The translations under genes and the position numbers were made by a program. From the NCBI GenBank assembly GCA_049287205.1, contig JBAQFJ010000001.1:511041-575040 (forward strand): 64,000 nt of DNA. Reading direction: 5' to 3'. Numbering within the stretch: position 1 is the stretch's first letter; every line of letters starts with the position of its first letter. The notes under the pieces were generated by a model. It did not search any database. It saw only the letters and a list, made by a program, of their open reading frames with translations, and was not told the DNA's origin. This DNA comes from Microgenomates group bacterium. GTDB lineage: Bacteria; Patescibacteriota; Microgenomatia; UBA10105; UBA927. This document shows positions 33,980 to 53,700 of the stretch, piece after piece.

Positions 33980-33980
33980 T

Positions 33981-36076: not shown

Positions 36077-36294
36077 AGTTTTTTCTCCTTTGTTAACAAC
36101 ATATACAGTATACCAATTGTGACAAATGCGGCGCCATACCAAACCAACCGTTCACCCGTAAAGAAAATCCATTTCGCAAATAGTGGAATTGCCAACAAAA
36201 AACAGAAAAGTCCTGCAATAACGAATAATTTTTCTCGCCGAAGCAATAAAAGAATACACAATAGAACGAAAAATCCTATATCTTGTGGCTTCAT
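36073..36294 (-). CDS. Small two-TM membrane protein
   Basis: 73 aa, two hydrophobic helices; translationally coupled on both sides by ATGA overlaps (with the UXS stop and the galE start). Confidence 0.45.
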   Translation of the reverse strand: MKPQDIGFFVLLCILLLLRREKLFVIAGLFCFLLAIPLFAKWIFFTGERLVWYGAAFVTIGILYMLLTKEKKL

Positions 36295-39103: not shown

Positions 39104-40738
39104 TCAATATGACGGTTTTCGTTTTTTTATCATAATAAATACAAAGATAACAAATGCTACTGCTCCAGCGATAAGTCCTATTTTTGACCAATATTCTTGG
39201 CTTTCCACAACTGTGGGTATTTCCGAGTGAAATGAAAATTGATCGTTCTCAAAAACAGCAATCTGTTGATATTCCGCGCGCCGTGTTAGTGGTGTTTCCT
39301 CCAACACGGAAATCACTTGTTCACGAAGCGCTGTATCCGTTTGATAGTCTGTCATAAACATTTTTCCTTCAATGTCTGTTGGAACGATGACGTATCGCAC
39401 ACCGCTTTCGGAAAGCTTCGGCAAAAACGCCGAAGACGTCGCTATCTCTAAAACTTGTGAGAGTGATGTGTTTGGATACAGGGTAGCTACAGACAACATC
39501 GGATGGGTATCAGACGAATACACAAATTTTTCAGCTGTCGGTATCCATAACGTACGCGATGGTGTTTTATCAGAAACAAGCATATCTTTTACCTGTATAT
39601 ATTCCTGAGGAATGGATTGGGGTTTAAAATTTCCACTCAGAGTCCCTAAAAATAACGGGCGGATAGTAAAGCACCAAAAAATGATAAAGGCTCCATAAAA
39701 AACCCATCTTAACTTTTTACTTTTTTTACTCAATCGTTCCAATGTATATGGAATAAGGACTGCATATCCAATTGCAGTAAACAAGTAAAATTTCGTCGGA
39801 TCACGAAACATAACAAACCCTGGAATATACCTAAAACACCAATTAAATATACTTCCAAATGGCGGATTTACGCCTTTTGCAAAAAACGCGCCTAGCAGAG
39901 CAAGTAATCCGAAAAATAGTATGTGTTTTTTATTCTTTGCTTGTTTAACAAAAACCATGGAACAAAATGCGATAAAAGGAATTACAAGAAATTCCGGCTG
40001 CAAAAAATATACTTTTCCAAACAGATTTTCCGGCCAATTCGGGTGAAGTAGTGATAGTGAATGGGAAAAATCAGCAACGCTTAAAAACTTGAGCATCCCC
40101 GGATTAGTAAAGTCCTCCCCAAGTGCTGACGAACCGACGCCTGTCAGAAGCGTTGGCAGAATCCAAAATGCATGGAGCACCGCTGCGGCAAACAGAGAAA
40201 TACCCATGTTTCTAATACGAAACGTTCTTGCAATACCCTGATATAAAACAATTGCCGCGAGCACTACATACGCGAGCCTAAGATCAAACAGGATAAGGAG
40301 AGCAAACCATAAGCCGTTTTGTATATCCTTTTTTTCATACCGAATAAATTTCAATAACACAAGTGGAGCTAAACCATACGCAAGTGCAACACCCAACTGA
40401 CCCCCACCAAATAAAAATAACGAATAGGTGTTTGTTATATACAATATAACTGCCAAATATGCCGCATTCCTCCCAACGACAAATTTTGTCAGTTTATATA
40501 TTCCAACTACGCCGATGGCGATGGCGATCAACCACAACATTTTTTCAATCACTCCCCATCCTAGTCCCAAACTGGCAAGTATCTTAACGATCAAACGGAA
40601 TGGATAGTCTATCCATAATCTTGGAAGCACATTTTCTCCAAACCCTTTGAAGGACTCCCATACTTTCGGCAACCATGAGAGCGCTGATATTTCTTCTTGA
40701 TAAAAAAATGGACCGTCTCCTGATGAAAAGAACATCAT
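39104..40738 (-). CDS. Polytopic membrane protein, paralog of the 40735..43713 product (shorter member)
   Basis: 544 aa; shares the block G(V)NPPFGSIFNWCFRYIPGFVMFRDPTKF with the neighbour's GSHPPFGFLFTWAMRHIPGFAIFRSSFYKF. Confidence 0.4.
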   Translation of the reverse strand: MMFFSSGDGPFFYQEEISALSWLPKVWESFKGFGENVLPRLWIDYPFRLIVKILASLGLGWGVIEKMLWLIAIAIGVVGIYKLTKFVVGRNAAYLAVILYITNTYSLFLFGGGQLGVALAYGLAPLVLLKFIRYEKKDIQNGLWFALLILFDLRLAYVVLAAIVLYQGIARTFRIRNMGISLFAAAVLHAFWILPTLLTGVGSSALGEDFTNPGMLKFLSVADFSHSLSLLHPNWPENLFGKVYFLQPEFLVIPFIAFCSMVFVKQAKNKKHILFFGLLALLGAFFAKGVNPPFGSIFNWCFRYIPGFVMFRDPTKFYLFTAIGYAVLIPYTLERLSKKSKKLRWVFYGAFIIFWCFTIRPLFLGTLSGNFKPQSIPQEYIQVKDMLVSDKTPSRTLWIPTAEKFVYSSDTHPMLSVATLYPNTSLSQVLEIATSSAFLPKLSESGVRYVIVPTDIEGKMFMTDYQTDTALREQVISVLEETPLTRRAEYQQIAVFENDQFSFHSEIPTVVESQEYWSKIGLIAGAVAFVIFVFIMIKKRKPSY

Positions 40739-43713
40739 AATGAATTTGTATGTTTTCTTTGTATGTATACAATCAATCCAACGCCACCCAATAAACCCAA
40801 CATTGTTACCATGCCACCGATATAAAACGTCCGTTGCGGTTCATAAACAATGGAAAACGTATGTGTGTCCTGTAGCTCCAATACCCAAGCGTTTGCATAC
40901 CCGTTTGCCCGAATATGATATTCTTCAGGAATTGCTTTTCCGTCAACTAACAATTTCCATCGGACATCAAACTGCTCATTAAACACTATTGTTGAAGGAC
41001 TTGAGGACGCCATTATTTCACCTGAATAGCTACTTGGATGTATCTCAGTAAAACGTACTTGACCACTTGATTTTGTACTCGGTTTCTCCCTGACAAAATA
41101 TATATTTTCAATTGTTGGAAGCAGGGCGTCTTGATTAAGAACAGTAATTTTATGGTATCCCTCAGTTAGACTAACTGTGCCGGATGAAGTCGATTGTGAG
41201 TCTATAAAAACCCTATGTAACGGTATCGCGCTATGAACCGTATATGCATCGGTTTGCGGTATTTCTACCTCAATTTTATACGTGGTTGTATCTGTCGTCA
41301 GCCAAGATTCCGCGCGAAGTGTTTTTTCAAACGCAACTATATTTTTACTGACTTCCTTTTGATTTTCATCAATTCCCATGGTGGCAACATAATGCTTTTG
41401 TGCTTGTACAAACGACAGGATTCGTATCACATAATCATTTTTTATTTTGCCGGTCAAACTACTGATTTCCTCAATCACAGTTTTCATCAGAACTGTATAG
41501 TCTTCAAAATTAACGGCGGACTCCGACAGATTATTTTGAAGAGTATTCCATTTCGCCTTCTGCAAATTCGTGTTTGCAATCATTATTTGCGCATCTATTG
41601 TTGACTGTATCGATGTTGCTGTTTCCAAGGAAGTTTTTTCGAAGTATTCTTTTCGTTTGAACAATATCGATCCTGGGGCATACGTTAAATCCGTTATTGA
41701 AAGACCGTTATCAATAGCATCTCGTTCCTTTTGGCTACATGCCACACATGTTGCCTGCGTCACATCCATCGTTGAGACAGTATCCAGTAGTGTAGCGGCA
41801 GAGGCGTGAATAGTATCAACGACTATTGTTTCCTTATTTTGTGCAAACGCCATAAAGACATCTGCGTGTGACACATCTTTTCCGTGCGCAGTAATGATAT
41901 CCGATCCAATATATATTTTGGATACGGCGACGGACGCCGGAATTTTGTACAAAGTCCATAAACCGATATTCTTAACCTCAACAAATGACCACGAAAGAAA
42001 ATTCTTCTTTTGCCAAACGATTGACCGATTATCCTGATACTCATTTTTATATACTGCATCATCTCTCCATAATATATATGTGATGCCTAACGTTTCAGCG
42101 ATCCGTATAAACCGATCTCTATCGTTTGTTCGAAGTGACTCATATAAACGAGTTATCATTTGGTTTGCGTCATTGTCATTTGCAATGAGCCCTCGTGACA
42201 TAACGCTTCGCGGTAATATATCCAGACTAAAATACCCCCATGACGATGTATCGAGAAGCACGTTGTAATATCCCGAATCTAAGGCGGGTAAAATCGCAAT
42301 CCGTGCATCCTTCTCAGTTGTTGTATTAACGAATTGCCCCATATCGTTCACATAGGAAGGGACAGACACGCGAGTACTAAACGGATTCATAAACGTAAAT
42401 ACATCCTTAGTAAAAAATGGATAATGATACGCAAGTATATATCCAAGGAGCACACTGCTTATCAGAAGTGCAAGAGTTTTTGACCGTATAGAAAGAATAC
42501 ATCGATGTAACGTATATCCCGATAACATAATGATGGGAATCCACACCATAGGCGCAAACTTATAAAAACTTGATCTAAAAATCGCGAACCCTGGTATATG
42601 CCGCATAGCCCATGTAAAAAGAAAGCCAAACGGCGGGTGTGAACCAGCGGCCAACACCAACCCAACCAACAACACAAGGAACAAACCAATGAGAAGCTGA
42701 TAGTTCTTTTCGACTTTCTGGGTAACCATTCCTCTGACAAAAAATATGGAGCCTACAAATGTAATGAACGCTGGGACGAAACTCAGAAAAACAAGTAAAG
42801 GATTTGTCAAAAAAGGCTTCGCAAACAAATTATTCGTATTATCATACCAATCCGGTATTCCCTGTAATCGAAGCAGATTTATAAAACTTGCATTCTTACT
42901 GATTCCCTGTTCCCATGCAATCAGCCCTTCCATTCCCCCGTTGTCACCAAGAGCCTGCGCATAGGTAGTCAGATACAAATGCATTTGAGGAAAAATCCAG
43001 TAGAAATTCAACACAATAAATGAGAGCAAGAATGCGCAACCAACAGTGAGACATCGTTTTATTTCGGTTCGTCCATTTTTTCTTATCGCGTATATTGAAA
43101 ACCAGACATAACAAATGAATAACGTCATTACAGTCGATCCATACAAGGGAGGCGATCCGCCGCCATTAAGTAAAAAATATAAGACTCCAAAATAGAGCGC
43201 GTTTATACCAATCGACTTTCTTTGTATGATTGACCGATAGAAAAGTGCAATTGCTATAGGCAAGGCCGCAAAGAGTGAAAACTTGGCACGTTCTCCAATA
43301 AACCACCCTTGAAAAACATAGAAGTTGAACATGGCAAATATGGATGACCATAAACGCAGGAAACGATATTTTTGATCAGAAAATAGAATATACACACCCA
43401 GCCACATACCAAACCCAAGGGTAAAAAACCAACCTATTAGGGCGAGCCGTTGTCCCCATAGCACTGACCCCGTAATTGCAGAAAAAAGCGTTTCAGGAAA
43501 TTGTGTTATAAGAAACGCTTTATATAACGACCAATCCTTTCCTATATTAATATAGGGATTCCAGGAATAAAAAATATTTTTCAGATGTTCAAGAGGAGCC
43601 AATCGGAAACCGCTATCGTGCCCCAACAACATCTGACCATCACGAAACCACAAGAGAGGAACTAATGAAAGGAGAAGTAGGAGTACGATCTCTCCCCAGA
43701 CTTTTTTTCTCAT
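40735..43713 (-). CDS. Very large polytopic membrane protein (992 aa), YfhO/AftD-like GT-C or polymerase candidate with a long C-terminal extracytoplasmic domain
   Basis: About 14 N-terminal TM helices; conserved PPFG...IPGF.IFR..FYKF block; roughly 550-aa soluble region; final TM helix (GGMVTMLGLLGGVGLIVYI) near the C-terminus. Confidence 0.4.
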   Translation of the reverse strand: MRKKVWGEIVLLLLLSLVPLLWFRDGQMLLGHDSGFRLAPLEHLKNIFYSWNPYINIGKDWSLYKAFLITQFPETLFSAITGSVLWGQRLALIGWFFTLGFGMWLGVYILFSDQKYRFLRLWSSIFAMFNFYVFQGWFIGERAKFSLFAALPIAIALFYRSIIQRKSIGINALYFGVLYFLLNGGGSPPLYGSTVMTLFICYVWFSIYAIRKNGRTEIKRCLTVGCAFLLSFIVLNFYWIFPQMHLYLTTYAQALGDNGGMEGLIAWEQGISKNASFINLLRLQGIPDWYDNTNNLFAKPFLTNPLLVFLSFVPAFITFVGSIFFVRGMVTQKVEKNYQLLIGLFLVLLVGLVLAAGSHPPFGFLFTWAMRHIPGFAIFRSSFYKFAPMVWIPIIMLSGYTLHRCILSIRSKTLALLISSVLLGYILAYHYPFFTKDVFTFMNPFSTRVSVPSYVNDMGQFVNTTTEKDARIAILPALDSGYYNVLLDTSSWGYFSLDILPRSVMSRGLIANDNDANQMITRLYESLRTNDRDRFIRIAETLGITYILWRDDAVYKNEYQDNRSIVWQKKNFLSWSFVEVKNIGLWTLYKIPASVAVSKIYIGSDIITAHGKDVSHADVFMAFAQNKETIVVDTIHASAATLLDTVSTMDVTQATCVACSQKERDAIDNGLSITDLTYAPGSILFKRKEYFEKTSLETATSIQSTIDAQIMIANTNLQKAKWNTLQNNLSESAVNFEDYTVLMKTVIEEISSLTGKIKNDYVIRILSFVQAQKHYVATMGIDENQKEVSKNIVAFEKTLRAESWLTTDTTTYKIEVEIPQTDAYTVHSAIPLHRVFIDSQSTSSGTVSLTEGYHKITVLNQDALLPTIENIYFVREKPSTKSSGQVRFTEIHPSSYSGEIMASSSPSTIVFNEQFDVRWKLLVDGKAIPEEYHIRANGYANAWVLELQDTHTFSIVYEPQRTFYIGGMVTMLGLLGGVGLIVYIQRKHTNSL

Positions 43714-43728
43714 ACTAGTATTATACCG

Positions 43729-44391
43729 TTATCTCCAAGCAACGAGAAGCGTTGTCGACACGAATCCTGGAACAGAGATATAAAAAGGTAACGGAATATT
43801 TAACGACCGATGAATTCTCCACAATAGCGGGAAGAATGACATGGGTTTACACACAATGTGCGTAAATCCCGCTTTCATAAACATCTTTTTCCATTCTTCA
43901 GGATATTTCACATTCAGGTGTGTCGGATCCGCTAAATTTTTCTGAAACGGAAATGGCGATGAGCCAATAAACTTTCCTCCAGGCTTTAATGCTTTATATA
44001 TATTTGACACTCCTTCAGATGGGTACGGCAGATGCTCTAGAACCTCAAAGCCAATGATGTAATCGTATTTAATTTTTGTGGGAATACTTTTTTGTATATC
44101 ACAGTAGATGAACGGAATATTGCCAATGAAGGTATGAGCATTCTTAATCATCATTTTTGAAACATCGCTACCGGTAATATCAGCGCCTTGGTTTTTTAAC
44201 AGATAACATACTCCCCCAGCCCCGCTACCTATCTCAATAACTTTCTTGCCCGCAAATTGAATATTGTATGTTGCCTGAATGTACGTTATCCAACCCCAAT
44301 ACCAGTTGGCGTATTTCAACACATCATGTTTCGTCCATGATGTGGCAATCGGTCGAAGATAGGTTTGAAAATATTGATCCCACTTTGACAT
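43729..44391 (-). CDS. Class I SAM-dependent methyltransferase
   Basis: VIEIGSGAGGVCYLL (motif I), ...GSDVS (post-I acidic), IIGFEVLEHLPYP, LKPGGKFIGSSP. Confidence 0.7.
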   Translation of the reverse strand: MSKWDQYFQTYLRPIATSWTKHDVLKYANWYWGWITYIQATYNIQFAGKKVIEIGSGAGGVCYLLKNQGADITGSDVSKMMIKNAHTFIGNIPFIYCDIQKSIPTKIKYDYIIGFEVLEHLPYPSEGVSNIYKALKPGGKFIGSSPFPFQKNLADPTHLNVKYPEEWKKMFMKAGFTHIVCKPMSFFPLLWRIHRSLNIPLPFYISVPGFVSTTLLVAWR

Positions 44392-44393
44392 AA

Positions 44394-45638
44394 TTATGTA
44401 TATTGAAGAAAAAATTTACTACATGTTCGTTTCATGTAGTTAATCATTTCAACGGTAATTCCCGGCCAGACCCCAACCCAAAATCCGTTATTCATAATGA
44501 TATCTGAATTATTCAGCTTGCCCACAATCCTGATATCTTTTCTGTTCATATAGGCGGGATGTTTCAATAAATTCCCTGCAAAAAGAGGACGCGTCCCAAT
44601 GTTATTATTTTCCAAAAATTCCACAAGTTGAGATTTAGTAAATGGGGCATCCTTTTTAACAATCAGCATAAATCCAAACCAACAGGGATCAGCTTCTTTC
44701 TCCCATGTTGGCAAAATAAAATATTTTTCATACTTTTTAAAAAAGGCGTATAATTTTTTAAAATTATCCTTACGCTTTTTGATAAATGTCGGAAGTTTTT
44801 TGAGTTGCGCGACCCCAATGGCCGCCTGAAAATCTGTAAGTTTCAGATTATATCCAATCTGTGAATACGTATATTTATGGTCATATCCATACGGTAAATC
44901 ACCTAATTGCCATGTAAAGCGTTTACCGCACGTGTTATCTTTTCCGGTATCACACCAGCAATCACGTCCCCAATCTCGAAATTGTCGAATAGCACGATGA
45001 ATAAGCGAATTATCAGTCACTATTGCACCACCCTCACCCATTGTTATCTGATGAGCAGGATAAAAGGAAAATGTGGAAATGTGTCCAAAAGTACCAGCCA
45101 ATTTCCCATTATATGTACCTCCTAAAGCATCGCAACAATCCTCAATCAACCAAAGATCATATTTTTTCACTAAACCAAGAATTTCATCCATTGGCATAAC
45201 ATTCCCTAATGCATGAGCCAACATGATAGCTTTGGTCTTTTTGGAAATCGCTTTTTCAATAGATTGAGCAGTTACATTACGTGATCCAAGATCAACATCG
45301 ATAAATACAGGGACAAGTTTATTTTGAATAATTGGATTCACTGTTGTCGGAAAAGCGCACGCAGTTGTAATCACTTCGTCGCCTGGTTGTAAAGCCTTTT
45401 TCCCAAACACAGATGAAGTGAGTGCCGTTAACGCAACAAGATTAGCTGAAGAACCTGAATTGAAGAGCGTGACACATTTTCTTCCTAAATACGAAGAAAA
45501 ATTCTTTTCAAAAATTTTAGAAAATTCCCCTTCAGTCCACCAACCATCACGTGCGACTTTAATAGCATTATTTATCTCTGCTTGATCGAATACTTTACCT
45601 GAAGCCGGTATATACTTAATCTTTGTTACATTTTTCAT
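44394..45638 (-). CDS. ddhC: CDP-6-deoxy-D-xylo-4-hexulose-3-dehydrase (E1; RfbH/DdhC)
   Basis: DGWWTEGEF, SGSSANLVALTALTS, LWLIEDCCDALGG, FSFYPAHQITMGEGG (His in place of the aminotransferase Lys), FRDWGRDCWCDTGKDNTCGKRF and GYDHKYTYS. Cys169-X57-Cys227-X1-Cys229-X7-Cys237 reproduces the E1 [2Fe-2S] motif. Confidence 0.9.
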   Translation of the reverse strand: MKNVTKIKYIPASGKVFDQAEINNAIKVARDGWWTEGEFSKIFEKNFSSYLGRKCVTLFNSGSSANLVALTALTSSVFGKKALQPGDEVITTACAFPTTVNPIIQNKLVPVFIDVDLGSRNVTAQSIEKAISKKTKAIMLAHALGNVMPMDEILGLVKKYDLWLIEDCCDALGGTYNGKLAGTFGHISTFSFYPAHQITMGEGGAIVTDNSLIHRAIRQFRDWGRDCWCDTGKDNTCGKRFTWQLGDLPYGYDHKYTYSQIGYNLKLTDFQAAIGVAQLKKLPTFIKKRKDNFKKLYAFFKKYEKYFILPTWEKEADPCWFGFMLIVKKDAPFTKSQLVEFLENNNIGTRPLFAGNLLKHPAYMNRKDIRIVGKLNNSDIIMNNGFWVGVWPGITVEMINYMKRTCSKFFLQYT

Positions 45639-45675: not shown

Positions 45676-46563
45676 TTAAATTAATGATAAAATTTCAGTT
45701 CTTTTTATAAGCGGGAGTCTTCCCACATACCAATCTGCCAAAACTCTAATTGTCTTATCAAAATTTGTATATTGAAAATTAGGAATTTCTTTATTCAACC
45801 TTTTTATTGAGCATGTATATTCGAAATTCGATTCTTTATCTAGTACCGTAATCTTTTGTGGTTTATTCATAACAAACAAAATGCGCTTTGCCATGGTTAA
45901 AAAATCCCTAGGCTTACCAGATCCGATATTATATGTAGAATACTTTGGTTTGTTGTTAATAAAGTGCTCAAGTATTCTAACAAAATCATTTATATATAAA
46001 TAATCAAATTTCGCGTTGTGACGTATAGTTATAGGAATATCTAATAGGGCTTGGCAAATTATATTTGATACAAATCTGAAACGATATTCTTCATATTTTC
46101 CATAAACCCCAAAAAGTCTTAAATTATATATAGGTAATTTTGTTTCTTCTATAAAGGAGGCAACAGTATATTTATATAAGCCAAAATCATCTGAAGGCAT
46201 TCGTTTCCCAAAGTCTTTTTCTTCAGCTTTATGAATGGATGCTTGTTTACCAAATTCAGCACCAGATCCAAAATAGATCATACGTTTAAAATATTGTTTA
46301 CATCTTACAAAATTTAAAAAAATACGAATATTTGATGAAATTATATTTGTACACTCAGCCTCACTTTTTTTACCCCCAATATTGGCCGCGTGAATAATGA
46401 TATCTGAAGGATGATTTCTTAAACATTTTTCTACTTCATTTTCATCTAATAAATTTAATTCTTGATGGGTAGGAGCATAAATATGATATCTAGATGCTAA
46501 CTGCTCAACAATATTATGTCCGATAAAACCACTTCCACCAGTAAGAAATATTGTTTTTGACAT
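45676..46563 (-). CDS. NAD(P)-dependent sugar epimerase/reductase (CDP-abequose/paratose-synthase- or YerF-like 4-ketoreductase candidate)
   Basis: MSKTIFLTGGSGFIGHNIVEQL Rossmann start; 295 aa extended SDR; adjacent to ddhC and the TPP enzyme. Confidence 0.6.
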   Translation of the reverse strand: MSKTIFLTGGSGFIGHNIVEQLASRYHIYAPTHQELNLLDENEVEKCLRNHPSDIIIHAANIGGKKSEAECTNIISSNIRIFLNFVRCKQYFKRMIYFGSGAEFGKQASIHKAEEKDFGKRMPSDDFGLYKYTVASFIEETKLPIYNLRLFGVYGKYEEYRFRFVSNIICQALLDIPITIRHNAKFDYLYINDFVRILEHFINNKPKYSTYNIGSGKPRDFLTMAKRILFVMNKPQKITVLDKESNFEYTCSIKRLNKEIPNFQYTNFDKTIRVLADWYVGRLPLIKRTEILSLI

Positions 46564-46583: not shown

Positions 46584-48407
46584 TTAACCCTCTTTAAGAG
46601 GTTCAATAATCATATTCTCATGAAATTCATCTCTGGGCAAAAACGGGTACATATCTTCTAATGGTTTCGATATAATCTTTCCATTAGAGTCTCTCATAGA
46701 ACTTACTTTTGGAAGAAATGGCTGATGCGGATCTAAAATGACCTCAATCAACATTGGTCCTTTTCTTGACAAAATAGTAAAAATTTTTTTCTTCAACTCA
46801 TTATGAGTTTGAATTCTATCTGTCGCAATTCCGTATGCTTTAGCTATCTTAATAAAATCAGGACATGACACTCCACTTTTAGGGTCACTTCCAACCAAGA
46901 AGCCTTCAAAATAAGCCGATTGAGTATGTTTAATACTTAGATATCCTTGATTGTTAAAAACAAATAACTTAATAGGTAAATTATGAAAAACCATTGTTTG
47001 CAGCTCTTGAAGATTCATTTCTAATCCTCCATCTCCGTGAACACAAATCACTTGTTTATTTAAATCAGCAAAACATGAACCAATTGCTGCAGGTAAACCG
47101 TATCCCATCGGTGCACAACCACCATTAGTAAAATATCTTTGACCCCTCTTCAACTTCAATGCTTGAGAGGAACTATAGAAAGTCGCACCTTGATCAGTGA
47201 TAACAGTATCATTTGGAGAAAGATAATCCGACAATATATCAAAAAAATAATATGAATTAACATACCTTTTTGATTTATCTTCTTTCATCTCAACTAAAGG
47301 AAATCGATCTCTCCAAGTTTTACATCTGTCAACCCATACGTTAGTTTGTAGACGTTGGCGACCCAATTCTCTACCCAATCTTTGAAAAAAATCTTTTAGA
47401 TCCGCATGTATTACAACGTCTGTGTTAATAAGTGGATGTTTTAATTGGGCTTCGTCAATATCAACAACTATTTTCTTTGCTTCTCTTGCAAATAATTTAG
47501 TTTCGTATCCAACCACCGTCAAAGGCAAACTGGATCCTAATGAAAGCACCAAATCGGCATTCTGCACAGCGAAATTCGCGGCACGTTGCCCATTAATACC
47601 TATACTACCAACACGGAGAGGGTGCTTATAATAAATAAGGTCAAAACCATTTTTTGTCGTGACTACTGGAATTTGATATTTCTCTATAAATTTTAAAAAC
47701 TTATCTTCTGAATGTGAGAGTCTAATGCCATTTCCGGCAATTATAATTGGTCTGTCGGATTTCTTTAATAATTTAACCAAAATTTTTATTTTTTTCGTCT
47801 CATTTTTATGACCAGCTTTAATACCCACTATTTCCTTTTGTGGAAAATATCTAGGCAACATTCTTTCATCTATCATCTTTGCTTGAATATCCAACGGTAT
47901 GGCTATCCAAACTGGACCTGGACGACCAGTTTTAGCTAAAAATACAGACTTTTCTAAATGATATCTAATGGTTGTTTCATCTGTTATTGTCACAGCATAT
48001 TTCGTAATACTCTCGACTAATTTCGTGATATCAACTTCCTGCACGCCTCTTTGTCTTCTCCCAGTATTTCCGATAAGTAATTTTGAATTAGCTTGTCCTG
48101 ATATAAATATAACTGGAATCGAATCATCCCAAGAACACATAACCCCAGTTATAGTGTTTGTTCCACCAGGACCCGTTGTTACCATGGCTACTCCAAGATT
48201 ATTGGTTGTCCGTTGATATCCCTCTGCAGATATTGCACACGCCTGTTCGTGATGATTACATATATACTTAATATCTTTACTTCTTCCCAAAGAATCAAAT
48301 AAATACATGCCACCTCCACCTGATACCATAAATATATGTTTAACGCCTTGTTGAGCAATAAACTTCATAACGTAATCAGATAAGCGAATTAGTTTTTTTC
48401 CATTCAT
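46584..48407 (-). CDS. Thiamine-diphosphate-dependent enzyme, acetolactate-synthase-like (YerE-like branched-chain sugar synthase candidate)
   Basis: 607 aa; TPP N-domain (GVKHIFMVSGGGGMY...GVAMVTTGPGGTN), central domain, TPP C-domain with the GDG...N Mg-binding motif (ICVHGDGGLEMNLQELQT). Confidence 0.8.
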   Translation of the reverse strand: MNGKKLIRLSDYVMKFIAQQGVKHIFMVSGGGGMYLFDSLGRSKDIKYICNHHEQACAISAEGYQRTTNNLGVAMVTTGPGGTNTITGVMCSWDDSIPVIFISGQANSKLLIGNTGRRQRGVQEVDITKLVESITKYAVTITDETTIRYHLEKSVFLAKTGRPGPVWIAIPLDIQAKMIDERMLPRYFPQKEIVGIKAGHKNETKKIKILVKLLKKSDRPIIIAGNGIRLSHSEDKFLKFIEKYQIPVVTTKNGFDLIYYKHPLRVGSIGINGQRAANFAVQNADLVLSLGSSLPLTVVGYETKLFAREAKKIVVDIDEAQLKHPLINTDVVIHADLKDFFQRLGRELGRQRLQTNVWVDRCKTWRDRFPLVEMKEDKSKRYVNSYYFFDILSDYLSPNDTVITDQGATFYSSSQALKLKRGQRYFTNGGCAPMGYGLPAAIGSCFADLNKQVICVHGDGGLEMNLQELQTMVFHNLPIKLFVFNNQGYLSIKHTQSAYFEGFLVGSDPKSGVSCPDFIKIAKAYGIATDRIQTHNELKKKIFTILSRKGPMLIEVILDPHQPFLPKVSSMRDSNGKIISKPLEDMYPFLPRDEFHENMIIEPLKEG

Positions 48408-50134
48408 AATTTATTATTTATTTTTAATAAATTCTTATAAAATTTTATGTGCGATGTCGGTGTAATTATAAATAAAGGTATACCTTTAACAACTAAATAA
48501 TCCGATAATAAATCCAATTGAACACTAAAATTTTCGTACTTTTTTGATGACACTTCTTTGTCTTCCTTTAATCCATCTTCATTATAGAAGTATTGAATTT
48601 CCTTTGTCTTTTTATCTTTATAACCATCCATTCCTACAACTAAAATTTCTTTCGCGCCCATTTGAATCGCAGTTAATATCGCGGCAACACCCACGTTCAA
48701 GTAAGCATGATTCTGCACTATGTCACTTATCAACGAATGTTCTGACCTATCAACCAATGCAATCTCAATATATTCTCGTTTCCCGATAAAATTTTCATTT
48801 ACTAAGTTCTTTCCAAAATATGAAGGTATTAATAAAATACTTCGATTATCTACTGTTGAAGAATATCTAAGAAATCTTTTCTTGCTTACGAATATATGAT
48901 AATTTGGTTTATATAGACCCTCTAGATAATTACAACCTATAGTTACAAGCTTTTCTTTTTTTATTAATTTGTTGATTGTTTTTTTATATTTTTTTATAGT
49001 AGGGCCATTGGCTATAATTAAAAATCTTTTATTTTTGTGTTTATTTGTAAAAACAACATCTTTCAAATGAAATGCATCTTTCGATGGAAACAGTTTAACT
49101 TGTTCCTCAATTTCTTCAACCACTGTTTTAGCGCTATCACGGGAAGGAACATAGAGGCGTTGTTGTAATGATGTGTCTAATTTATTTTTATTAAATGAAA
49201 TTGGACAGTCTTGTTTAATATGATCCAAAACATTCCATATCTCTTCGATAGTAAAATTTCCAGTTTTAATCAATTCATCAACATAATAGGGATGAATATT
49301 TCTACCTCCACTCAGTAAAGTTTTTAATGAGTATCCCCATTTTAATTCATCTTTTAATTTTAGATAAAAACGATCAATGACATCTAGATATGGAACTACG
49401 TTGTATTTTACATCACCCTTAGTTTGTAAATAATTTAGCAATATTTCGATCGGGAGATTTCCCGCCCCTCTACCCATACCGTATATCGATGCATCAACAT
49501 AACCTACACCATCGTTTATGGCTTGCAAGGCATTAGCGAAAGCCATTTGTAAATTGTTATGAGAATGAAATCCAATATTTTTAAAACCAATATGTTTCAA
49601 TTTTCTAATATACTTTGAAATATCTGATGGAATATAAGAACCAAAACTATCTGCGAAGTATACCGCCTCCAAAAATTTTCTATTCTTCCAATTTTCAATT
49701 ATATTCATCTCTAAATTTTTCCACTCTGATGAAGCCATCAGTTGCAAAAATACTAAGTATCCTTTATCAAACAGTTTTTCAATAAGATTGATTGCTTGCT
49801 TAGCTTCATATGGATATGCAGCGACTCTTATCCCCACAAAAGGCGTCAACTCTTTTCTGCATTTAGGAATTTTATAATTTGTATACTTACCCGCATCTAT
49901 CATGCAAAGTAATTTACAGTCCGTTAACGATTTAAATAAGGAATTAATATATTCTTCACGACAATATCCAAATTCTCCTAATCCAATTATGTTATTATCA
50001 TTTTTGTAACCAATTTCAAAATAATCGACTTGGGCATTTGAAGCAGCAAAATAGGAAGCCTTTACCAATGACTCATCAAAATGCCATTTGTTTATATGAC
50101 CACCATCTCTTATTGAACAATCGATTATCTTCAT
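48404..50134 (-). CDS. Fusion protein: DmpG-type class II pyruvate aldolase (HMGL-like TIM barrel) + GT42/Maf(DUF115)-like nucleotide-sugar transferase-like domain
   Basis: N-terminal IIDCSIRDGGH (D-x-x-x-RDG-xH), GFHSHNNLQMAFANALQAINDGVGYVDASIYGMGRGAGNLPIEILL (near-identical to the DmpG metal-site block). C-terminal LIIANGPTIKKY, VTIGCNYL and NVGVAAILTAIQMGAKEILVVGMDGY parallel the Cst-II/Maf motifs (GNGPS, RCNQFY, GYKEIYLSGIDFY). Confidence 0.6.
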   Translation of the reverse strand: MKIIDCSIRDGGHINKWHFDESLVKASYFAASNAQVDYFEIGYKNDNNIIGLGEFGYCREEYINSLFKSLTDCKLLCMIDAGKYTNYKIPKCRKELTPFVGIRVAAYPYEAKQAINLIEKLFDKGYLVFLQLMASSEWKNLEMNIIENWKNRKFLEAVYFADSFGSYIPSDISKYIRKLKHIGFKNIGFHSHNNLQMAFANALQAINDGVGYVDASIYGMGRGAGNLPIEILLNYLQTKGDVKYNVVPYLDVIDRFYLKLKDELKWGYSLKTLLSGGRNIHPYYVDELIKTGNFTIEEIWNVLDHIKQDCPISFNKNKLDTSLQQRLYVPSRDSAKTVVEEIEEQVKLFPSKDAFHLKDVVFTNKHKNKRFLIIANGPTIKKYKKTINKLIKKEKLVTIGCNYLEGLYKPNYHIFVSKKRFLRYSSTVDNRSILLIPSYFGKNLVNENFIGKREYIEIALVDRSEHSLISDIVQNHAYLNVGVAAILTAIQMGAKEILVVGMDGYKDKKTKEIQYFYNEDGLKEDKEVSSKKYENFSVQLDLLSDYLVVKGIPLFIITPTSHIKFYKNLLKINNKL

Positions 50135-50145
50135 TTTGCAATACC

Positions 50146-50901
50146 CTAACGTATATTTAGTTCATCATATGAATGAATAATATAATTACTGTATTTTGAT
50201 AACTCTTGAAACGATGTTTGACCCAAAGTAACACCTATTCCTGCTTTTAATCCTCCTTTAGCTGCCATAATCAAATCCATAGGAGCATCACCTAAACAAA
50301 TTGATTTATCTGCTGTTGATCCTAACATATCTAAAGCAATTTTTACATGCACCCCTGAAGCTTTCGGCAAAACTGATTGCTCTCTGCCAATATATGCGTC
50401 GATATAACTATTAAGCTTTAATAAGCTCATGCATTTCTTTGCGTTTACCACACTATCAGAAGTCACAATGGCTATTTTTATGTTCCTACTCTTTAATTTC
50501 TTCATTAAATTCTTAATTCCTGGCAATATTACAACGTAATTATCCATTTTATTTAAAAAATCTTTATGAACTTGTTCAAATAGGTTTTGAATTTCAATTT
50601 TAGATATTGTGATATTGTTATTCTTTAACTTTCTGAATAATATATCTATAATTTCTTCCCTAGATAGAATACCTACAGGACCAAATTCTAATAATTTTTG
50701 CTTAGACAAGTCGTATCCCATCCATAAACATATTTTATTAAAGAATTGTGAATTTAATTTGTAATCTTTAACGAATGCGCTACTTCGCATTTTAATAATC
50801 TCACCCCAATAAATGTGTAAGTCTTGTATAGTTCCATCTTTATCAAACAAAACAGTCTCAACGTCCTTAATACACCAATTGAGAGCACTAAAATTTATCA
50901 T
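50146..50901 (-). CDS. HAD-superfamily phosphatase (subfamily IA-like)
   Basis: Motif I LFDKDGTI, motif II IVTSD, motif IV LGDAPMD. Confidence 0.75.
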   Translation of the reverse strand: MINFSALNWCIKDVETVLFDKDGTIQDLHIYWGEIIKMRSSAFVKDYKLNSQFFNKICLWMGYDLSKQKLLEFGPVGILSREEIIDILFRKLKNNNITISKIEIQNLFEQVHKDFLNKMDNYVVILPGIKNLMKKLKSRNIKIAIVTSDSVVNAKKCMSLLKLNSYIDAYIGREQSVLPKASGVHVKIALDMLGSTADKSICLGDAPMDLIMAAKGGLKAGIGVTLGQTSFQELSKYSNYIIHSYDELNIR

Positions 50902-51938
50902 ACTAAGTACTTCAAGGTTTCATTAACTAATTCCTTTGCCTTTTTATAAGCTGAATTGAAGATAGTTTTGTTTTCAAAAAAATCTTCGTTATTTAATTCC
51001 TCTTTAATAATTTTTCGTGCAAACGATCCCAAAGACACACCGTTTGCTTGAACTTCAAATAATTTCGCCAATTTTGACGTCTTACTATTTGTTCCACCCG
51101 ACATTAGCACCCAAACAGGTAGTCTTGCCTTTTGTACGATATCAGCTGTAGCGATTGTTTGAAGTGTGGTGTTGTTGTTGTCATTTGAACCGCTCATTGG
51201 AGATCCGTCTGCCTGAACAATTGTCGTAAAATCCTTTCTGTCTTTAATAAATAATTTGATCCTGTTAATAAGTTGTTTATCGCTTAAATGAGATCTGTCT
51301 AAACAAACACTCAATATTCCCGGAAAAGCTTTGTTCATTGTTCTCCAAATGCTATATGATTCGTCATCATCTTCTGTAATAGCATGTAGTTCAATTGAAG
51401 AAACGCCTAAATCAATTAATGGTGGTAAAATTTTACGTAAATTTCTTTCTTTATACTGAAAATCAATGGCTCCAAATTTACAAACTTTTGCGCACGCGTT
51501 GCACCCTATACATTTGCTATCAATTACTAGGTATTTTTTTATACCTTTTGAATCAACTGCATTTTGAATAGCATTTTGTAAACATACAACTGAACAGGCA
51601 CCGCACGCGCGACATTTTTCCAAATTAATTCTAGCTTTCATTGCATGTGGATCCCCATTAACTCCCACGCTTACACAATAAAAATATTCCTTCCTTTTAT
51701 TCTTTGGAACTACTCGTTCGATTCCTTTTTTAGCTGCTAACACTGATTCTTTGTTTGGTGATAAATCAAAATAATGTACCCCTGCTTTTGCGTAAACAGC
51801 AACTAACCTCTCGATCATTTTATAATCCTCGTTACCAGCGCCACAAATTAGCTTGAAGCATTTCTTTTGATTGAGCAAATCTGATAATTTCATATTGTAT
51901 TTAATATTGAATAGCATGTATATGTTATCAAACAGCAT
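50898..51938 (-). CDS. TIM-barrel-like protein with an embedded 2x[4Fe-4S] ferredoxin domain
   Basis: Two CxxCxxCxxxC motifs (CRACGACSVVC and CIGCNACAKVC) at residues ~108-150. The flanks (LICGAGNEDY...VAVYAKAGVHYFDLS and C-terminal VWVLMSGGTNS...ANGVSLGS) resemble a phosphate-binding (beta/alpha)8 barrel. Confidence 0.55.
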   Translation of the reverse strand: MLFDNIYMLFNIKYNMKLSDLLNQKKCFKLICGAGNEDYKMIERLVAVYAKAGVHYFDLSPNKESVLAAKKGIERVVPKNKRKEYFYCVSVGVNGDPHAMKARINLEKCRACGACSVVCLQNAIQNAVDSKGIKKYLVIDSKCIGCNACAKVCKFGAIDFQYKERNLRKILPPLIDLGVSSIELHAITEDDDESYSIWRTMNKAFPGILSVCLDRSHLSDKQLINRIKLFIKDRKDFTTIVQADGSPMSGSNDNNNTTLQTIATADIVQKARLPVWVLMSGGTNSKTSKLAKLFEVQANGVSLGSFARKIIKEELNNEDFFENKTIFNSAYKKAKELVNETLKYLV

Positions 51939-51979: not shown

Positions 51980-52930
51980 TTATTCCCTCTTAAAATATTC
52001 CTGATACCATCGAAAGACCTGCACTATCTTTTTATTAATATTATATTTCGATTTCCAACCTAATCTTCGTATTTTACGATCCTCAAGATGCTGATACGGT
52101 ATTTCATTTTTTGCTGTATTTTGTATGTCATACGCAATATGCTTTTTTAACGTTTTTTCTGCTTTTTTTATTAATTCCAAAACAGAACACGTGTCATCAG
52201 AAGAAAAATTATATGCTTCGCCTGTTATATCTTTTTTTATTTCTATAAGCTTCATATATCCTAGAGCAACGTCTTTTACATAAAGATAATCGCGAATGTA
52301 AGTACCGTCACTTCGAAGTTGTAATGGCTTACCTACAATAATGGATTGGCAGATACCTGGAATAATTCTGTCAAAATGCATATCTCCTTCGCCGTACACA
52401 TTCCCAAATCGTGTAATAACGACAGGCAATCCATAAGTTTTAAAAAACGTCTGTGCTATCAGGTCCGCACATGACTTGGATACGTCATATGGATGATCTC
52501 CTTGAAGAGGTGATGTTTCTGTATAAGCGACCTTCGTCTTTCCATATGCCTTATCTGACGAAGCAATGAGAATACGTTTGATATTTTTATCTTTCCTACA
52601 TGCTTCTAATATATTTACTGTTCCCATAATATTTGTTTCAAATGCATCATAGGGATTATCGTATGCATCTTGAACAATTGGTTGAGCTGCTAAATGTATT
52701 ACATAGGTGGGATGAATTAAGGAAAAAAATGCAGTTACCTGCTTTTTCTTTCTAATATCTACATTTCGATAAGATACTTTCTTCTCAAGGTGTTTTTCAA
52801 AAAAATAGGATTTACAGGACTTCTGAATATCGATGACAACCACCTTAAATTTTTTCTTCAAAAGAAGTTCAACAAGATGTGCACCTATAAATCCTGCTCC
52901 GCCTGTAACAACAACTGTTTCTTTTACCAT
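51980..52930 (-). CDS. NAD-dependent sugar dehydratase/epimerase, CDP-glucose 4,6-dehydratase candidate
   Basis: VVVTGGAGFIGAHL, YDVSKSCADL (YxxxK); immediately downstream of ddhA. Start set at Met10 (MVKET), 1 nt after the ddhA stop; ORF-track start is 52957. Confidence 0.55.
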   Translation of the reverse strand: MVKETVVVTGGAGFIGAHLVELLLKKKFKVVVIDIQKSCKSYFFEKHLEKKVSYRNVDIRKKKQVTAFFSLIHPTYVIHLAAQPIVQDAYDNPYDAFETNIMGTVNILEACRKDKNIKRILIASSDKAYGKTKVAYTETSPLQGDHPYDVSKSCADLIAQTFFKTYGLPVVITRFGNVYGEGDMHFDRIIPGICQSIIVGKPLQLRSDGTYIRDYLYVKDVALGYMKLIEIKKDITGEAYNFSSDDTCSVLELIKKAEKTLKKHIAYDIQNTAKNEIPYQHLEDRKIRRLGWKSKYNINKKIVQVFRWYQEYFKRE

Positions 52931-53700
52931 ACTTTCCACTCGGGGTTTTCTTTCCACTCAGTATTTAAGCGTTCAACATCTGCGTATGTATCCATGCATT
53001 GCCAATAGCCTTTATGGATGTACATAGAAAGCTGTTTTTTTTCAATAAGCCGCTTTAATGCCGGATGCTCCAATTCATTTAGCCGTAAATAATTAAAAAA
53101 AGCATATTTACAAACCATAAATCCCCCATTGACCCAATCTTGAAGAACTGGTTTCTCCACAAATGCGGTTACTCGATTATGTGTGTCTGCGCTCATTAAT
53201 CCGTATTTACTTCTTGGATATACACCTGTAACTGTTCCTATTGTTTTGTTTTTTTTATGAAAAGCGACTAATTTTTTAATATCGACATTTGCAACACCGT
53301 CACCATATGTAACCATAAAACTTTCATTTTTTGGAATGTATTTCTTCACTCGAATTATTCGTTCTCCCGGTAATGTGTCAAGTCCGGTATCAACGAAAGT
53401 TATTTTAAAATCGTCAACAAGTTTTTCATTATTCTTATCAGTGTGGATTTTTGCATTACCTGACTTTGTCGAGAGTGTAAAATCGTGTTGAAGATATTTT
53501 TGATTAAGAAAATAATCCTTTATGTAATCGCCTTTATATCCCAAAGCAATAACAAATTCATTAAAACCATAATGGCTATATATTTTCATAATATGCCATA
53601 GTATGGGCTTATTACCAATCAATACCATTGGTTTTGGTTTAAACTCAGTCTCTTCTTTAAGACGATACCCAATACCACCGCAAAGAATTACCGTTTTCAT
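52924..53700 (-). CDS. ddhA: Glucose-1-phosphate cytidylyltransferase
   Basis: MKTVILCGGIGYRLKEETEFKPKPMVLIGNKPILWHIMKIYSHYGFNEFVIALGYKGDYIKDYF closely follows the RfbF/DdhA consensus. Confidence 0.85.
   Translation of the reverse strand: MKTVILCGGIGYRLKEETEFKPKPMVLIGNKPILWHIMKIYSHYGFNEFVIALGYKGDYIKDYFLNQKYLQHDFTLSTKSGNAKIHTDKNNEKLVDDFKITFVDTGLDTLPGERIIRVKKYIPKNESFMVTYGDGVANVDIKKLVAFHKKNKTIGTVTGVYPRSKYGLMSADTHNRVTAFVEKPVLQDWVNGGFMVCKYAFFNYLRLNELEHPALKRLIEKKQLSMYIHKGYWQCMDTYADVERLNTEWKENPEWKVW

Follow-up and report, generated by a model that had tools for sequence, protein, structure and literature searches.

An E1-type 3-dehydrase gene in a Microgenomates operon that probably serves a C4-branched 3,6-dideoxyhexose pathway

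The window, a stretch of 64,000 nucleotides from a Microgenomates-group (CPR) bacterium, carries a gene whose predicted product is a genuine member of the E1/RfbH family, the enzymes that remove the 3-hydroxyl of an activated sugar. The best overall explanation of the locus, to which we assign a probability of roughly 70% on sequence grounds, is that this E1 is functional, that no E3 reductase is encoded locally, and that the product is branched at C4 to give a yersiniose/erwiniose-type sugar. The gene and its diagnostic codons are located as follows:

44394..45638, minus strand: E1-type PMP/[2Fe-2S] NDP-4-keto-6-deoxyhexose 3-dehydrase (RfbH/DdhC/AscC orthologue), 414 aa; RfbH equivalog, PDB 3bcx
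44928..45134, minus strand: predicted [2Fe-2S] ligand region of E1, from alignment to Yersinia C193/C251/C253/C261 and homologue conservation
45132-45134, 44958-44960, 44952-44954 and 44928-44930, minus strand: codons of the ligands Cys169, Cys227, Cys229 and Cys237, respectively
45051..45053, minus strand: codon of His196, which replaces the aminotransferase Schiff-base Lys and equals Yersinia H220

The open reading frame runs from ATG to stop and contains cysteines at positions 55, 94, 168, 169, 227, 229, 237, 319 and 406. Four of these form the array Cys169-X57-Cys227-X1-Cys229-X7-Cys237, and Cys168 adjoins Cys169 (EDCCDALG), as it does in Yersinia and Salmonella E1. His196 lies within FYPAHQITMGEGG (residues 192-204). 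In the Yersinia E1 structure 3bcx, the [2Fe-2S] ligands are C193/C251/C253/C261 and the catalytic residue is H220. A HMMER alignment to 3bcx, with an offset of +24, places Cys169/227/229/237 on these four ligands and His196 on H220. The residue count and the alignment thus agree with the earlier note, which had read the four cysteines as the E1 ligand spacing and the PMP-site residue as His.

Conservation across 144 E1 homologues points the same way: His196 and Cys227/229/237 are invariant (144/144), and Cys169 is kept in 142, the exceptions being one Ser and one truncated sequence. The position of Yersinia Cys257, an extra, non-ligand cysteine, is variable among the same homologues and mostly Lys. 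The exact pattern C-X57-C-X-C-X7-C arose by chance in 10 of 200,000 shuffles of the E1 protein (5e-5), and the looser C-X55-60-C-X-C-X7-C occurs once among all six-frame window ORFs of at least 40 aa.

Family-level comparisons are consistent with this assignment. The protein scores 635 bits against the RfbH equivalog NF011936 (cut-off 423) on a DegT_DnrJ_EryC1 scaffold (Pfam PF01041, 308 bits). The alignment to Yersinia and Salmonella RfbH that had been suggested as a check gave E=1.4e-147 to 3bcx, versus 1.9e-62 to the cluster-less ColD (HMMER), and 52% identity to Salmonella RfbH over 407 aa; homologues on Streptomyces plasmids are similarly close, at 51–52% identity. Named aminotransferases, such as perosamine synthetase, match at 1e-35 or weaker. 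Because the cysteines and the histidine are positionally homologous and family-conserved, the spacing is not a chance resemblance, and the protein does not group with ordinary DegT aminotransferases. The E1 call is sound and routine, given the aligned conserved residues, the equivalog pass and the fact that an identical NCBI protein, from a Microgenomates-group (CPR) MAG, is already named RfbH. The earlier note had gone further and taken the gene to confirm 3-deoxygenation in this locus. The enzyme's identity holds, but "confirms" is too strong, since the window contains no E3 reductase gene and E1 activity is a prediction.

E1 belongs to a run of nine minus-strand genes that starts at 53700, ends at 43729 and has intergenic distances between -34 and +86 nt. 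In the order of transcription, and with E1 as the eighth gene, the other members are:

52924..53700, minus strand: probable glucose-1-phosphate cytidylyltransferase (RfbF/DdhA-like), 258 aa (TIGR02623, Salmonella RfbF)
51980..52957, minus strand: probable CDP-glucose 4,6-dehydratase (SDR), 325 aa, divergent from RfbG (TIGR02622, motifs)
50898..51893, minus strand: LdpA-like TIM-barrel protein carrying a 2x[4Fe-4S] ferredoxin domain as an insertion (Pfam LdpA_C and Fer4)
50146..50901, minus strand: HAD-family phosphatase-like protein, 251 aa (Pfam HAD_2/Hydrolase)
48404..50134, minus strand: HMGL-like (4-hydroxy-2-oxovalerate aldolase-type, BphI/ErwI family)/MptE-like fusion, 576 aa (Pfam)
46584..48407, minus strand: ThDP-dependent YerE/JanthE-like carboligase, 607 aa (best PDB match 8rph)
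45676..46563, minus strand: extended SDR, 295 aa, putative YerF-type side-chain ketoreductase (Pfam Epimerase/RmlD_sub_bind)
43729..44391, minus strand: SAM-dependent methyltransferase, 220 aa (Pfam Methyltransf_23/12/31/11/25)

The first two genes, which overlap by 34 nt, resemble the enzymes that make and dehydrate CDP-glucose. The nucleotidyltransferase finds its best NCBIfam match in TIGR02623 (264 bits, under the 300 cut-off) and is 40% identical to Salmonella RfbF. The dehydratase reaches 192 bits against TIGR02622 (cut-off 278) and 29% identity to RfbG; its SSDKAYG motif has the Asp-Lys pair of RfbG (TSDKCYD), unlike the TDE of RmlB, and YxxxK is present. As both scores fall below the NCBIfam cut-offs, the nucleotide carrier is probable rather than certain.

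The LdpA-like protein has 331 aa counted from the NCBI start (the ORF reaches 51938), and its AF2 model has a pLDDT of 90.6; it could belong to a donor-synthesis module or serve as an electron donor. The HAD gene beside it adjoins the LdpA-like gene in other phyla too. In the fusion protein, residues 2-240 match NF006049/TIGR03217 below their cut-offs, and by analogy we propose that the fusion makes an alpha-keto-acid donor. The ThDP enzyme is closest among PDB entries to 8rph, which is JanthE (PMC12188165), at E=3e-141, followed by PpYerE (5ahk, 2e-79), with true acetolactate synthases at 5e-73 or weaker; it falls below the cut-off of every acetolactate synthase equivalog. Its motif is the canonical GDG, and the CDG motif of JanthE is absent from it. 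Homologues of the SDR, 288–289 aa long, adjoin the ThDP enzyme or E1 in three related loci (L001, L092 and L094), and its position would suit a YerF-type reductase. The methyltransferase gene starts 2 nt downstream of E1, with a similar one downstream of E1 in L092, and may act on the sugar.

In the published scheme for acyl-branched sugars, which was tested on substrate analogues, a cluster comprises the genes for CDP-4-keto-3,6-dideoxyglucose together with those for a reductase, a YerE-like ThDP carboligase and a pyruvate aldolase that supplies the alpha-keto acid (PMC9306805). A YerE-like ThDP carboligase gene shares the operon with E1 in the window. In the route that we propose, the substrate would be an NDP-4-keto-6-deoxyhexose, most likely CDP-glucose-derived, whose C4 keto group would form a Schiff base with PMP. 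His196 would then deprotonate PMP at C4' and the 3-OH would leave, chemistry that we infer from the Yersinia enzyme. The delta-3,4-glucoseen-PMP adduct would be reduced by two one-electron transfers via the [2Fe-2S] cluster on Cys169/227/229/237, giving CDP-4-keto-3,6-dideoxyglucose. The electrons would probably come from a general ferredoxin/flavodoxin system, or possibly from the LdpA-like 2x[4Fe-4S] protein.

The adjacent ThDP enzyme would most likely take up this product and place an acyl branch on C4, the donor being pyruvate or a longer 4-hydroxy-2-oxo acid from the operon's aldolase domain; we infer both acceptor and donor from the gene neighbourhood and the published scheme. Side-chain reduction by the SDR, and perhaps methylation, would follow, and the route would end in a yersiniose/erwiniose-type acyl-branched 3,6-dideoxyhexose on the cell-surface glycan of this Microgenomates (CPR) bacterium. 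Judged by the predicted gene functions, the route probably yields a C4-branched sugar and not abequose or tyvelose. Of the earlier suggestion of a rare, immunodominant 3,6-dideoxyhexose, the 3-dehydrase stands, but the simple end sugar gives way to the probable C4 branching indicated by the neighbouring genes; the immunodominant O-antigen framing derives from enterobacteria, and the host here is a CPR bacterium.

Related gene sets are found in other genomes. Six distinct CPR loci with close E1 homologues all carry an acetolactate synthase-like ThDP enzyme and/or a split transketolase, and a cassette of NTP-transferase, 4,6-dehydratase, LdpA-like, HAD, HMGL/MptE, ThDP enzyme, SDR and E1 genes recurs in Clostridium botulinum, Omnitrophota, Magasanikbacteria, Geobacter and Melainabacteria. 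Literature searches returned nothing linking LdpA to dideoxy sugars, nothing relevant for LdpA and glycosylation, and nothing linking CPR to dideoxyhexoses; the paper on the C. botulinum flagellar island makes no mention of the cassette genes.

The classical system consists of two proteins, E1 and a dedicated NADH-dependent [2Fe-2S]/FAD reductase, E3 (AscD/DdhD/RfbI). A Pfam scan of the 64-kb window, which took in 58 of about 59 non-overlapping ORFs with a length of 100 aa or more, found no Fer2/FAD_binding_6/NAD_binding_1 protein, and tblastn with Salmonella E3 against the window, down to E=10, returned noise only (at most 22 bits). A six-frame regex scan of the window found no small ferredoxins, and Fe-S motifs only in E1, the LdpA-like gene and two spurious antisense ORFs. 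No E3 (RfbI/AscD) lies within 10 kb in the six related CPR loci, and none was seen when 80 LdpA loci and nine related E1 loci were inspected. Within the 144 homologues, the four cluster ligands stay conserved in lineages without E3. An E3 or other partner could sit elsewhere on the 1.02-Mb contig. Since a dedicated E3 is not encoded nearby, E1 is probably supplied with electrons by a general (housekeeping) ferredoxin or flavodoxin system, by analogy with SpnQ, a 3-dehydrase that has no dedicated E3 and runs on general ferredoxin/flavodoxin reductase pairs (PMC8987622).

An unlikely but specific alternative is that the LdpA-like TIM-barrel/2x[4Fe-4S] protein is a dedicated replacement for E3 and the electron donor of the E1 cluster. 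This proposal concerns the electron source only and is compatible with the branched-sugar reading. It draws on the fact that, E1 aside, the LdpA-like gene is the only one in the window to encode an Fe-S protein and shares the operon with E1, on the E3-free record of the 80 LdpA loci (0/80), and on gene order: among the 12 LdpA loci with an E1 gene, 10 have it as the same-strand neighbour directly upstream of the LdpA-like gene. Against it, all four cysteines are kept in six close CPR E1 loci that lack both LdpA and E3, and in 68 of the 80 LdpA loci no E1 gene lies within 10 kb. An HMGL/MptE gene lies near LdpA in 36 of the 80 loci, 20 of which have no E1 or ThDP enzyme, and four loci combine LdpA, HAD, HMGL and the ThDP enzyme with no DegT gene. 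The TIM-barrel fold and its many invariant polar residues suggest an enzyme with a substrate of its own. These co-occurrence counts indicate that the LdpA-like gene tracks the aldolase gene, not E1, and they count against a dedicated E3 substitute, which we keep as a minority hypothesis. The wider idea that a non-classical partner feeds E1 in the E3-less lineages, with the co-operonic LdpA-like protein as its most interesting candidate, is likewise improbable in our judgement.

We also consider it doubtful that the locus ends in a simple 3,6-dideoxyhexose of the abequose, paratose, tyvelose or ascarylose type, with the ThDP enzyme and the aldolase serving elsewhere. The SDR at 45676-46563, directly upstream of E1, could be a C4 reductase, and in two loci (L003 and L092) E1 is flanked by an SDR and a dTDP_sugar_isom-type epimerase, resembling an ascarylose-type finish. 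However, the similarity of the window SDR to abequose synthase of Salmonella is only weak, and no tblastn match above 60 bits falls on that gene. The ThDP enzyme, the aldolase and E1 all sit in one tight operon, and the linkage of E1 to the ThDP enzyme was found again in every related locus examined.

It is very unlikely that the gene encodes a SpnQ-type dTDP-4-keto-2,6-dideoxyhexose 3-dehydrase for a 2,3,6-trideoxy sugar. A dedicated E3 is missing here as it is for SpnQ, and the identity to the Streptomyces plasmid homologues is about the same as that to Salmonella RfbH; but SpnQ-type enzymes act alongside an NDP-hexose 2,3-dehydratase, a 3-ketoreductase and a thymidylyltransferase. In Pfam scans of the operon and the window, neither a 2,3-dehydratase of the Nudix type nor a thymidylyltransferase, adjacent or otherwise, was found, and the operon's nucleotidyltransferase best matches a cytidylyltransferase. 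SpnQ-type membership was rejected on these scans.

Three further genes of the window were considered in connection with ColD-type chemistry:

59895-61073: separate ColD-like gene, three loop cysteines absent
35090-36142: GalE, rejected as GDP-mannose 4,6-dehydratase
36291-37241: ambiguous SDR

A search of the window for a GDP-mannose 4,6-dehydratase, with which the ColD-like gene could make up a colitose-type pathway, found none. It is extremely improbable that the cysteine spacing of E1 is coincidental and that E1 acts as an ordinary aminotransferase of the DegT family or as a ColD-like dehydratase without a cluster: it does belong to DegT_DnrJ_EryC1 and has a ColD-like paralogue in the same window, but it carries His instead of Lys, its four family-invariant cysteines are homologous in position to proven ligands, its E1 E-value is some 85 orders of magnitude better than that to ColD, a far weaker match, and it has all three of the loop cysteines that the paralogue lacks.

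The E1 annotation is correct but routine, as the NCBI naming indicates. What is modestly unusual is the combination of an uncultured, ultra-small CPR host, the lack of a classical E3 gene nearby, and a probable feed into a branched-chain sugar pathway. CPR/Patescibacteria are, to our knowledge, uncultured, with surface glycans that are hardly characterised, and the only producers of yersiniose/erwiniose-like branched sugars known to us are mycobacteria and a small number of Gram-negative bacteria. The context described here indicates that CPR/Patescibacteria encode radical-type C3-deoxygenation chemistry and probably make branched 3,6-dideoxyhexoses of this kind. Because E1 is widespread without E3 and its cluster ligands are conserved, the electron supplier becomes a question for these lineages. 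The LdpA-like, HAD and HMGL/MptE genes of the conserved cross-phylum cassette would make reasonable targets for enzymology and for the mining of ThDP biocatalysts. The LdpA family is known to us only as a cyanobacterial circadian redox sensor. If the LdpA-like protein did feed E1, the family would gain its first biochemical function, and the pair would form a new two-protein C3-deoxygenation system within a cassette common to CPR, Omnitrophota, Melainabacteria, Geobacter and the flagellin glycosylation island of Clostridium botulinum.

Compared with known systems, the window E1 shares fold, family, catalytic His and four cluster cysteines with E1 of Yersinia pseudotuberculosis (CDP-6-deoxy-L-threo-D-glycero-4-hexulose-3-dehydrase, AscC/DdhC, PDB 3bcx/3bb8) and Salmonella RfbH, and its operon has cytidylyltransferase-like and 4,6-dehydratase-like genes as theirs do. 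It differs in having no E3 (RfbI/AscD/DdhD) gene in the window, in being about 24 N-terminal residues shorter than the Yersinia protein, without the non-ligand Cys257, in a 4,6-dehydratase just 29% identical to RfbG, in downstream genes that are not abequose, paratose or tyvelose synthases, and in a CPR host rather than an LPS-bearing proteobacterium. ColD (GDP-4-keto-6-deoxymannose 3-dehydratase) belongs to the same superfamily and also has His in place of Lys, but it is distant from E1, lacks an Fe-S cluster and regenerates PMP with glutamate.

SpnQ of Saccharopolyspora spinosa, like the window enzyme, is a PMP/[2Fe-2S] 3-dehydrase without a dedicated E3 (PMC8987622), and by analogy its mode of electron supply is the likely operating mode of the window E1; its dTDP-2,6-dideoxy substrate and antibiotic pathway differ from the window context, which has no 2,3-dehydratase or thymidylyltransferase.

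The acyl-branched clusters differ from the window in several details. The window lacks E3 and an ErwJ-type aldehyde dehydrogenase, its aldolase domain forms a fusion with an MptE-like one, it adds HAD and LdpA-like Fe-S proteins that lie outside the published scheme, and its ThDP enzyme has GDG where JanthE has CDG. The sister cassettes L007-L010 carry an HpcH/HpaI aldolase, unlike the window. In its gene set, however, the window operon is like the clusters for yersiniose (YerE/YerF), erwiniose (ErwE/F/I/J) and caryophyllose (MMAR_2331-2332), and that of JanthE.

The ORF at 44394-45638 runs from ATG to stop on the minus strand and encodes 414 aa, with cysteines at positions 55, 94, 168, 169, 227, 229, 237, 319 and 406. 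Four of these are spaced as Cys169-X57-Cys227-X1-Cys229-X7-Cys237, and residues 192-204 (FYPAHQITMGEGG) contain His196. The residue positions confirmed the ORF, the cysteine spacing and the PMP-site histidine described in an earlier note, in which only the strand was not given. The spacing was regained in 10 of 200,000 shuffles of the protein, and a search of every six-frame ORF of 40 aa or more in the 64-kb window gave the looser E1-type pattern C-X55-60-C-X-C-X7-C a single time.

We compared this ORF with E1, the RfbH/DdhC/AscC-type PMP/[2Fe-2S] sugar 3-dehydrase. It scored 635 bits against NF011936, the NCBI curated RfbH equivalog (cut-off 423), and all aminotransferase equivalogs remained far under their own cut-offs. 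The top solved-structure match was Yersinia pseudotuberculosis E1 (3bcx/3bb8; E=1.4e-147), followed at a distance by ColD, a cluster-free 3-dehydratase (1.9e-62), and by named aminotransferases such as perosamine synthetase (1e-35 or weaker). At an offset of +24, Cys169/227/229/237 correspond to C193/C251/C253/C261, the unusual [2Fe-2S] motif of Yersinia E1, and His196 to its catalytic base H220 (review PMC8987622). We aligned 144 homologues, comprising the 120 best database matches, E1 genes from 22 fetched loci, the window protein and Salmonella RfbH (52% identity over 407 aa). His196 and Cys227/229/237 were invariant, Cys169 was kept in 142 of 144 (the exceptions being one Ser and one truncated sequence), and Yersinia's additional Cys257, replaced here by Lys, occupied a variable position.

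By every sequence-level criterion tested, the window protein belongs to the E1/RfbH family. The earlier note had proposed alignment to Yersinia and Salmonella RfbH, with coincidental spacing and grouping with ordinary DegT aminotransferases as grounds for refutation; the alignment favours its E1 call, which the equivalog score and the homologous Cys and His residues support. Alignments excluded both the ColD and the ordinary-aminotransferase readings. The call itself is routine, automated annotation having made it before: a protein identical to it is on record, from a 1,020,031-bp contig, under the name 'MAG: lipopolysaccharide biosynthesis protein RfbH [Microgenomates group bacterium]'. The added interest lies in the host, the Microgenomates group being part of Patescibacteria/CPR, in the steady absence of the reductase partner E3, in the probable conversion of the product to a branched sugar, and in an unexplained LdpA/HAD/HMGL-MptE module.

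The first 14.7 kb of the window carry genes for the cell wall (mur, ddl, PBP, mraW). A very large glycan locus extends from ~17 kb to the window end; it comprises numerous GT1, GT2 and GT4 genes, SDRs, three genes of the DegT family, a Bac_transf initiating transferase, a DUF4012 protein and, at 500-1000 aa, several ORFs that gave no Pfam match. E1 stands within a run of minus-strand genes with intergenic gaps of -34 to +86 nt:

52924-53700, minus: nucleotidyltransferase; best match glucose-1-phosphate cytidylyltransferase, 264 bits, under the cut-off of 300; 40% identity to RfbF
51980-52957, minus: SDR 4,6-dehydratase; best match CDP-glucose 4,6-dehydratase, 192 bits, under the cut-off of 278; 29% identity to RfbG; YxxxK and an Asp-Lys pair (SSDKAYG) like RfbG, as against Asp-Glu in RmlB
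50898-51893, minus: LdpA-like protein with two CxxCxxCxxxC motifs
50146-50901, minus: HAD hydrolase
48404-50134, minus: HMGL-like (4-hydroxy-2-oxovalerate-aldolase type) domain fused to an MptE-like domain
46584-48407, minus: ThDP enzyme
45676-46563, minus: SDR, 295 aa
44394-45638, minus: E1
43729-44391, minus: SAM methyltransferase

G+C content drops at the E1 operon, from 41.7% (1-43713) to 33.7% (43729-64000), and stays low to the window end; individual genes beyond the ~43.7 kb boundary go down to 29-30%. Such low-G+C blocks are typical of exchangeable glycan islands. The closest relatives of the window's ThDP, HMGL, HAD and LdpA-like genes are in other phyla (57-75% identity), and those of E1 are CPR E1s (up to 89-90%). 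Given this drop and the differing nearest relatives, composition and similarity suggest a mosaic, horizontally exchanged glycan island.

Classical E1 requires E3 (RfbI/AscD/DdhD), an NADH-dependent FAD/[2Fe-2S] reductase (PMC8987622), which in the Salmonella reference locus is encoded directly upstream of rfbF-rfbG-rfbH. A Pfam scan of 58 of the ~59 non-overlapping window ORFs of at least 100 aa found none with the Fer2/FAD_binding_6/NAD_binding_1 architecture, and tblastn with Salmonella E3 returned nothing above 22 bits in the window, even at E=10. No E3 was present within 10 kb of the closest E1 homologues in six distinct loci (69-90% identity, all CPR-type), whose E1 proteins retain all four cysteines. 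This conservation of ligands in lineages with no E3 near E1 argues that the cluster would still be in use and that another electron donor is probably present. SpnQ offers a precedent, working with general ferredoxin/ferredoxin-reductase or flavodoxin/flavodoxin-reductase pairs (PMC8987622).

Homologues of the LdpA-like protein were used to trace a cassette whose order is conserved across phyla: NTP-transferase, 4,6-dehydratase, LdpA-like, [HAD], HMGL/MptE, [HpcH/HpaI], ThDP enzyme, SDR, E1. It was found in Clostridium botulinum, Omnitrophota, Magasanikbacteria and a JGI metagenome contig. In the C. botulinum locus (Logan SRR7550839 contig 45, 8268-17782), the genes for NTP-transferase, SDR, LdpA-like protein, HMGL/MptE, HpcH/HpaI, ThDP enzyme, RfbG-like dehydratase and E1 lie between two flagellin genes, in a flagellin glycosylation island; this placement implies that the strain would carry a branched 3,6-dideoxyhexose-type flagellin glycan.

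At least 535 LdpA-like relatives occur in bacterial genomes, many in Melainabacteria/Gastranaerophilales, and we counted neighbours within 10 kb for the best 80 of the 535. HMGL/MptE was found in 36 of 80 loci, the ThDP enzyme in 14 and E1 in 12 (immediately upstream of the LdpA-like gene in 10), and E3 in none. All three partners were missing from 44 loci, mostly of Melainabacteria; 20 had HMGL/MptE without E1 or ThDP enzyme, and four combined HAD, HMGL and ThDP enzyme but had no DegT gene. The AlphaFold model (pLDDT 90.6) is a TIM barrel into which a two-cluster (2x[4Fe-4S]) ferredoxin domain is inserted; Foldseek returned generic TIM-barrel enzymes only. With many invariant polar residues, the protein has the appearance of an enzyme acting on a substrate of its own. 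Since the gene tracks the aldolase/MptE gene, not E1, and E1 relatives appear to function without it, we favour its assignment to the side-chain or donor module. That the LdpA-like protein, with its predicted ferredoxin domain, substitutes for E3 is a minority hypothesis that we consider unlikely. No link between LdpA and sugar biosynthesis was found in the literature searched.

The ThDP enzyme did not reach the cut-off for any acetolactate synthase equivalog. Its nearest solved structures by sequence were 8rph (E=3e-141), the YerE-like enzyme JanthE, and PpYerE (5ahk, 2e-79), with true acetolactate synthases at 5e-73 or weaker; its motif is the canonical GDG, whereas JanthE has CDG. Steitz et al. 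(PMC9306805) put forward, and tested in part, a unifying scheme. In it, a YerE-like ThDP enzyme joins C4 of the E1 product, CDP-4-keto-3,6-dideoxy-D-glucose, to pyruvate (yersiniose) or to a longer 4-hydroxy-2-oxo acid supplied by a pyruvate aldolase (BphI-like ErwI or citrate-lyase/HpcH-like MMAR_2331). YerF-type reduction follows, and some clusters also encode a SAM methyltransferase. Except for E3, the operon contains candidates for the entire gene set of this scheme. An ALS-like ThDP enzyme, a split transketolase or both are present at every related CPR E1 locus examined, usually accompanied by a homologue (288-289 aa) of the window SDR. From this gene set and this recurrence, we infer that the end product is most likely a C4-acyl-branched 3,6-dideoxyhexose.

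In several CPR loci, in some alongside an ALS-like ThDP enzyme, split two-subunit transketolase-like genes adjoin E1; keto-sugar branching by such transketolases is predicted, not yet shown (review PMC12247030):

L001, 5792-7554
L003, 17482-19248
L005, 7260-9079 and 12864-14559
L093, 7283-9042

Other deoxysugar genes occur in the window. A second 3-dehydratase-like DegT gene (59895-61073, minus, 392 aa) is ColD-like, with His-His at the Lys position (FYVGHHMST), the Cys169 equivalent, none of the three loop cysteines, and a best NCBIfam match to RfbH of just 219 bits. Together with a nearby GDP-L-fucose-synthase-like SDR (57133-58113, minus), it suggests a second candidate route to a 3,6-dideoxyhexose, colitose-like and cluster-independent; a GDP-mannose 4,6-dehydratase was looked for in the window and not found. 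The pair is kept near E1 in L001 (80% identity) and L003 (68%). At 33044-35087 (plus), two genes look like a module for a 3-acetamido-3,6-dideoxyhexose of the Fuc3NAc/Qui3NAc type: one fuses a hexapeptide acetyltransferase to an FdtA-type 3,4-ketoisomerase (311 aa), and the other encodes a DegT aminotransferase (368 aa). With it, the locus would have a third route to a deoxysugar.

Five large ORFs, without a Pfam match at E<=1e-3 or 1e-4, are possible glycan polymerases or GT-C transferases:

40735-43713, minus: 992 aa, directly after the E1 operon
26784-29771, minus: 995 aa
37247-39100, minus: 617 aa
39104-40738, minus: 544 aa
62251-63924, minus: 557 aa

Similar unannotated ORFs of 540-1100 aa occur in the related CPR loci L092-L094, and one relative in L001 has a faint GT-C_AftD match. 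A stand-alone 182-aa Glyco_transf_4 N-terminal-domain ORF (32374-32922, minus) directly precedes a 384-aa GT1 gene (31223-32377, minus) and overlaps with it; as a separate 182-aa ORF of similar kind is found both in L093 and at the L092 end, the arrangement seems to be a conserved split, not a frameshift.

With E3 absent from the window, the classical two-protein system is not reproduced here. The window E1 would be operationally like SpnQ, but its context is probably CDP-type. As a whole, the operon resembles the yersiniose, erwiniose and caryophyllose clusters, to which it adds the LdpA-like protein, the HAD hydrolase and the MptE-like domain.
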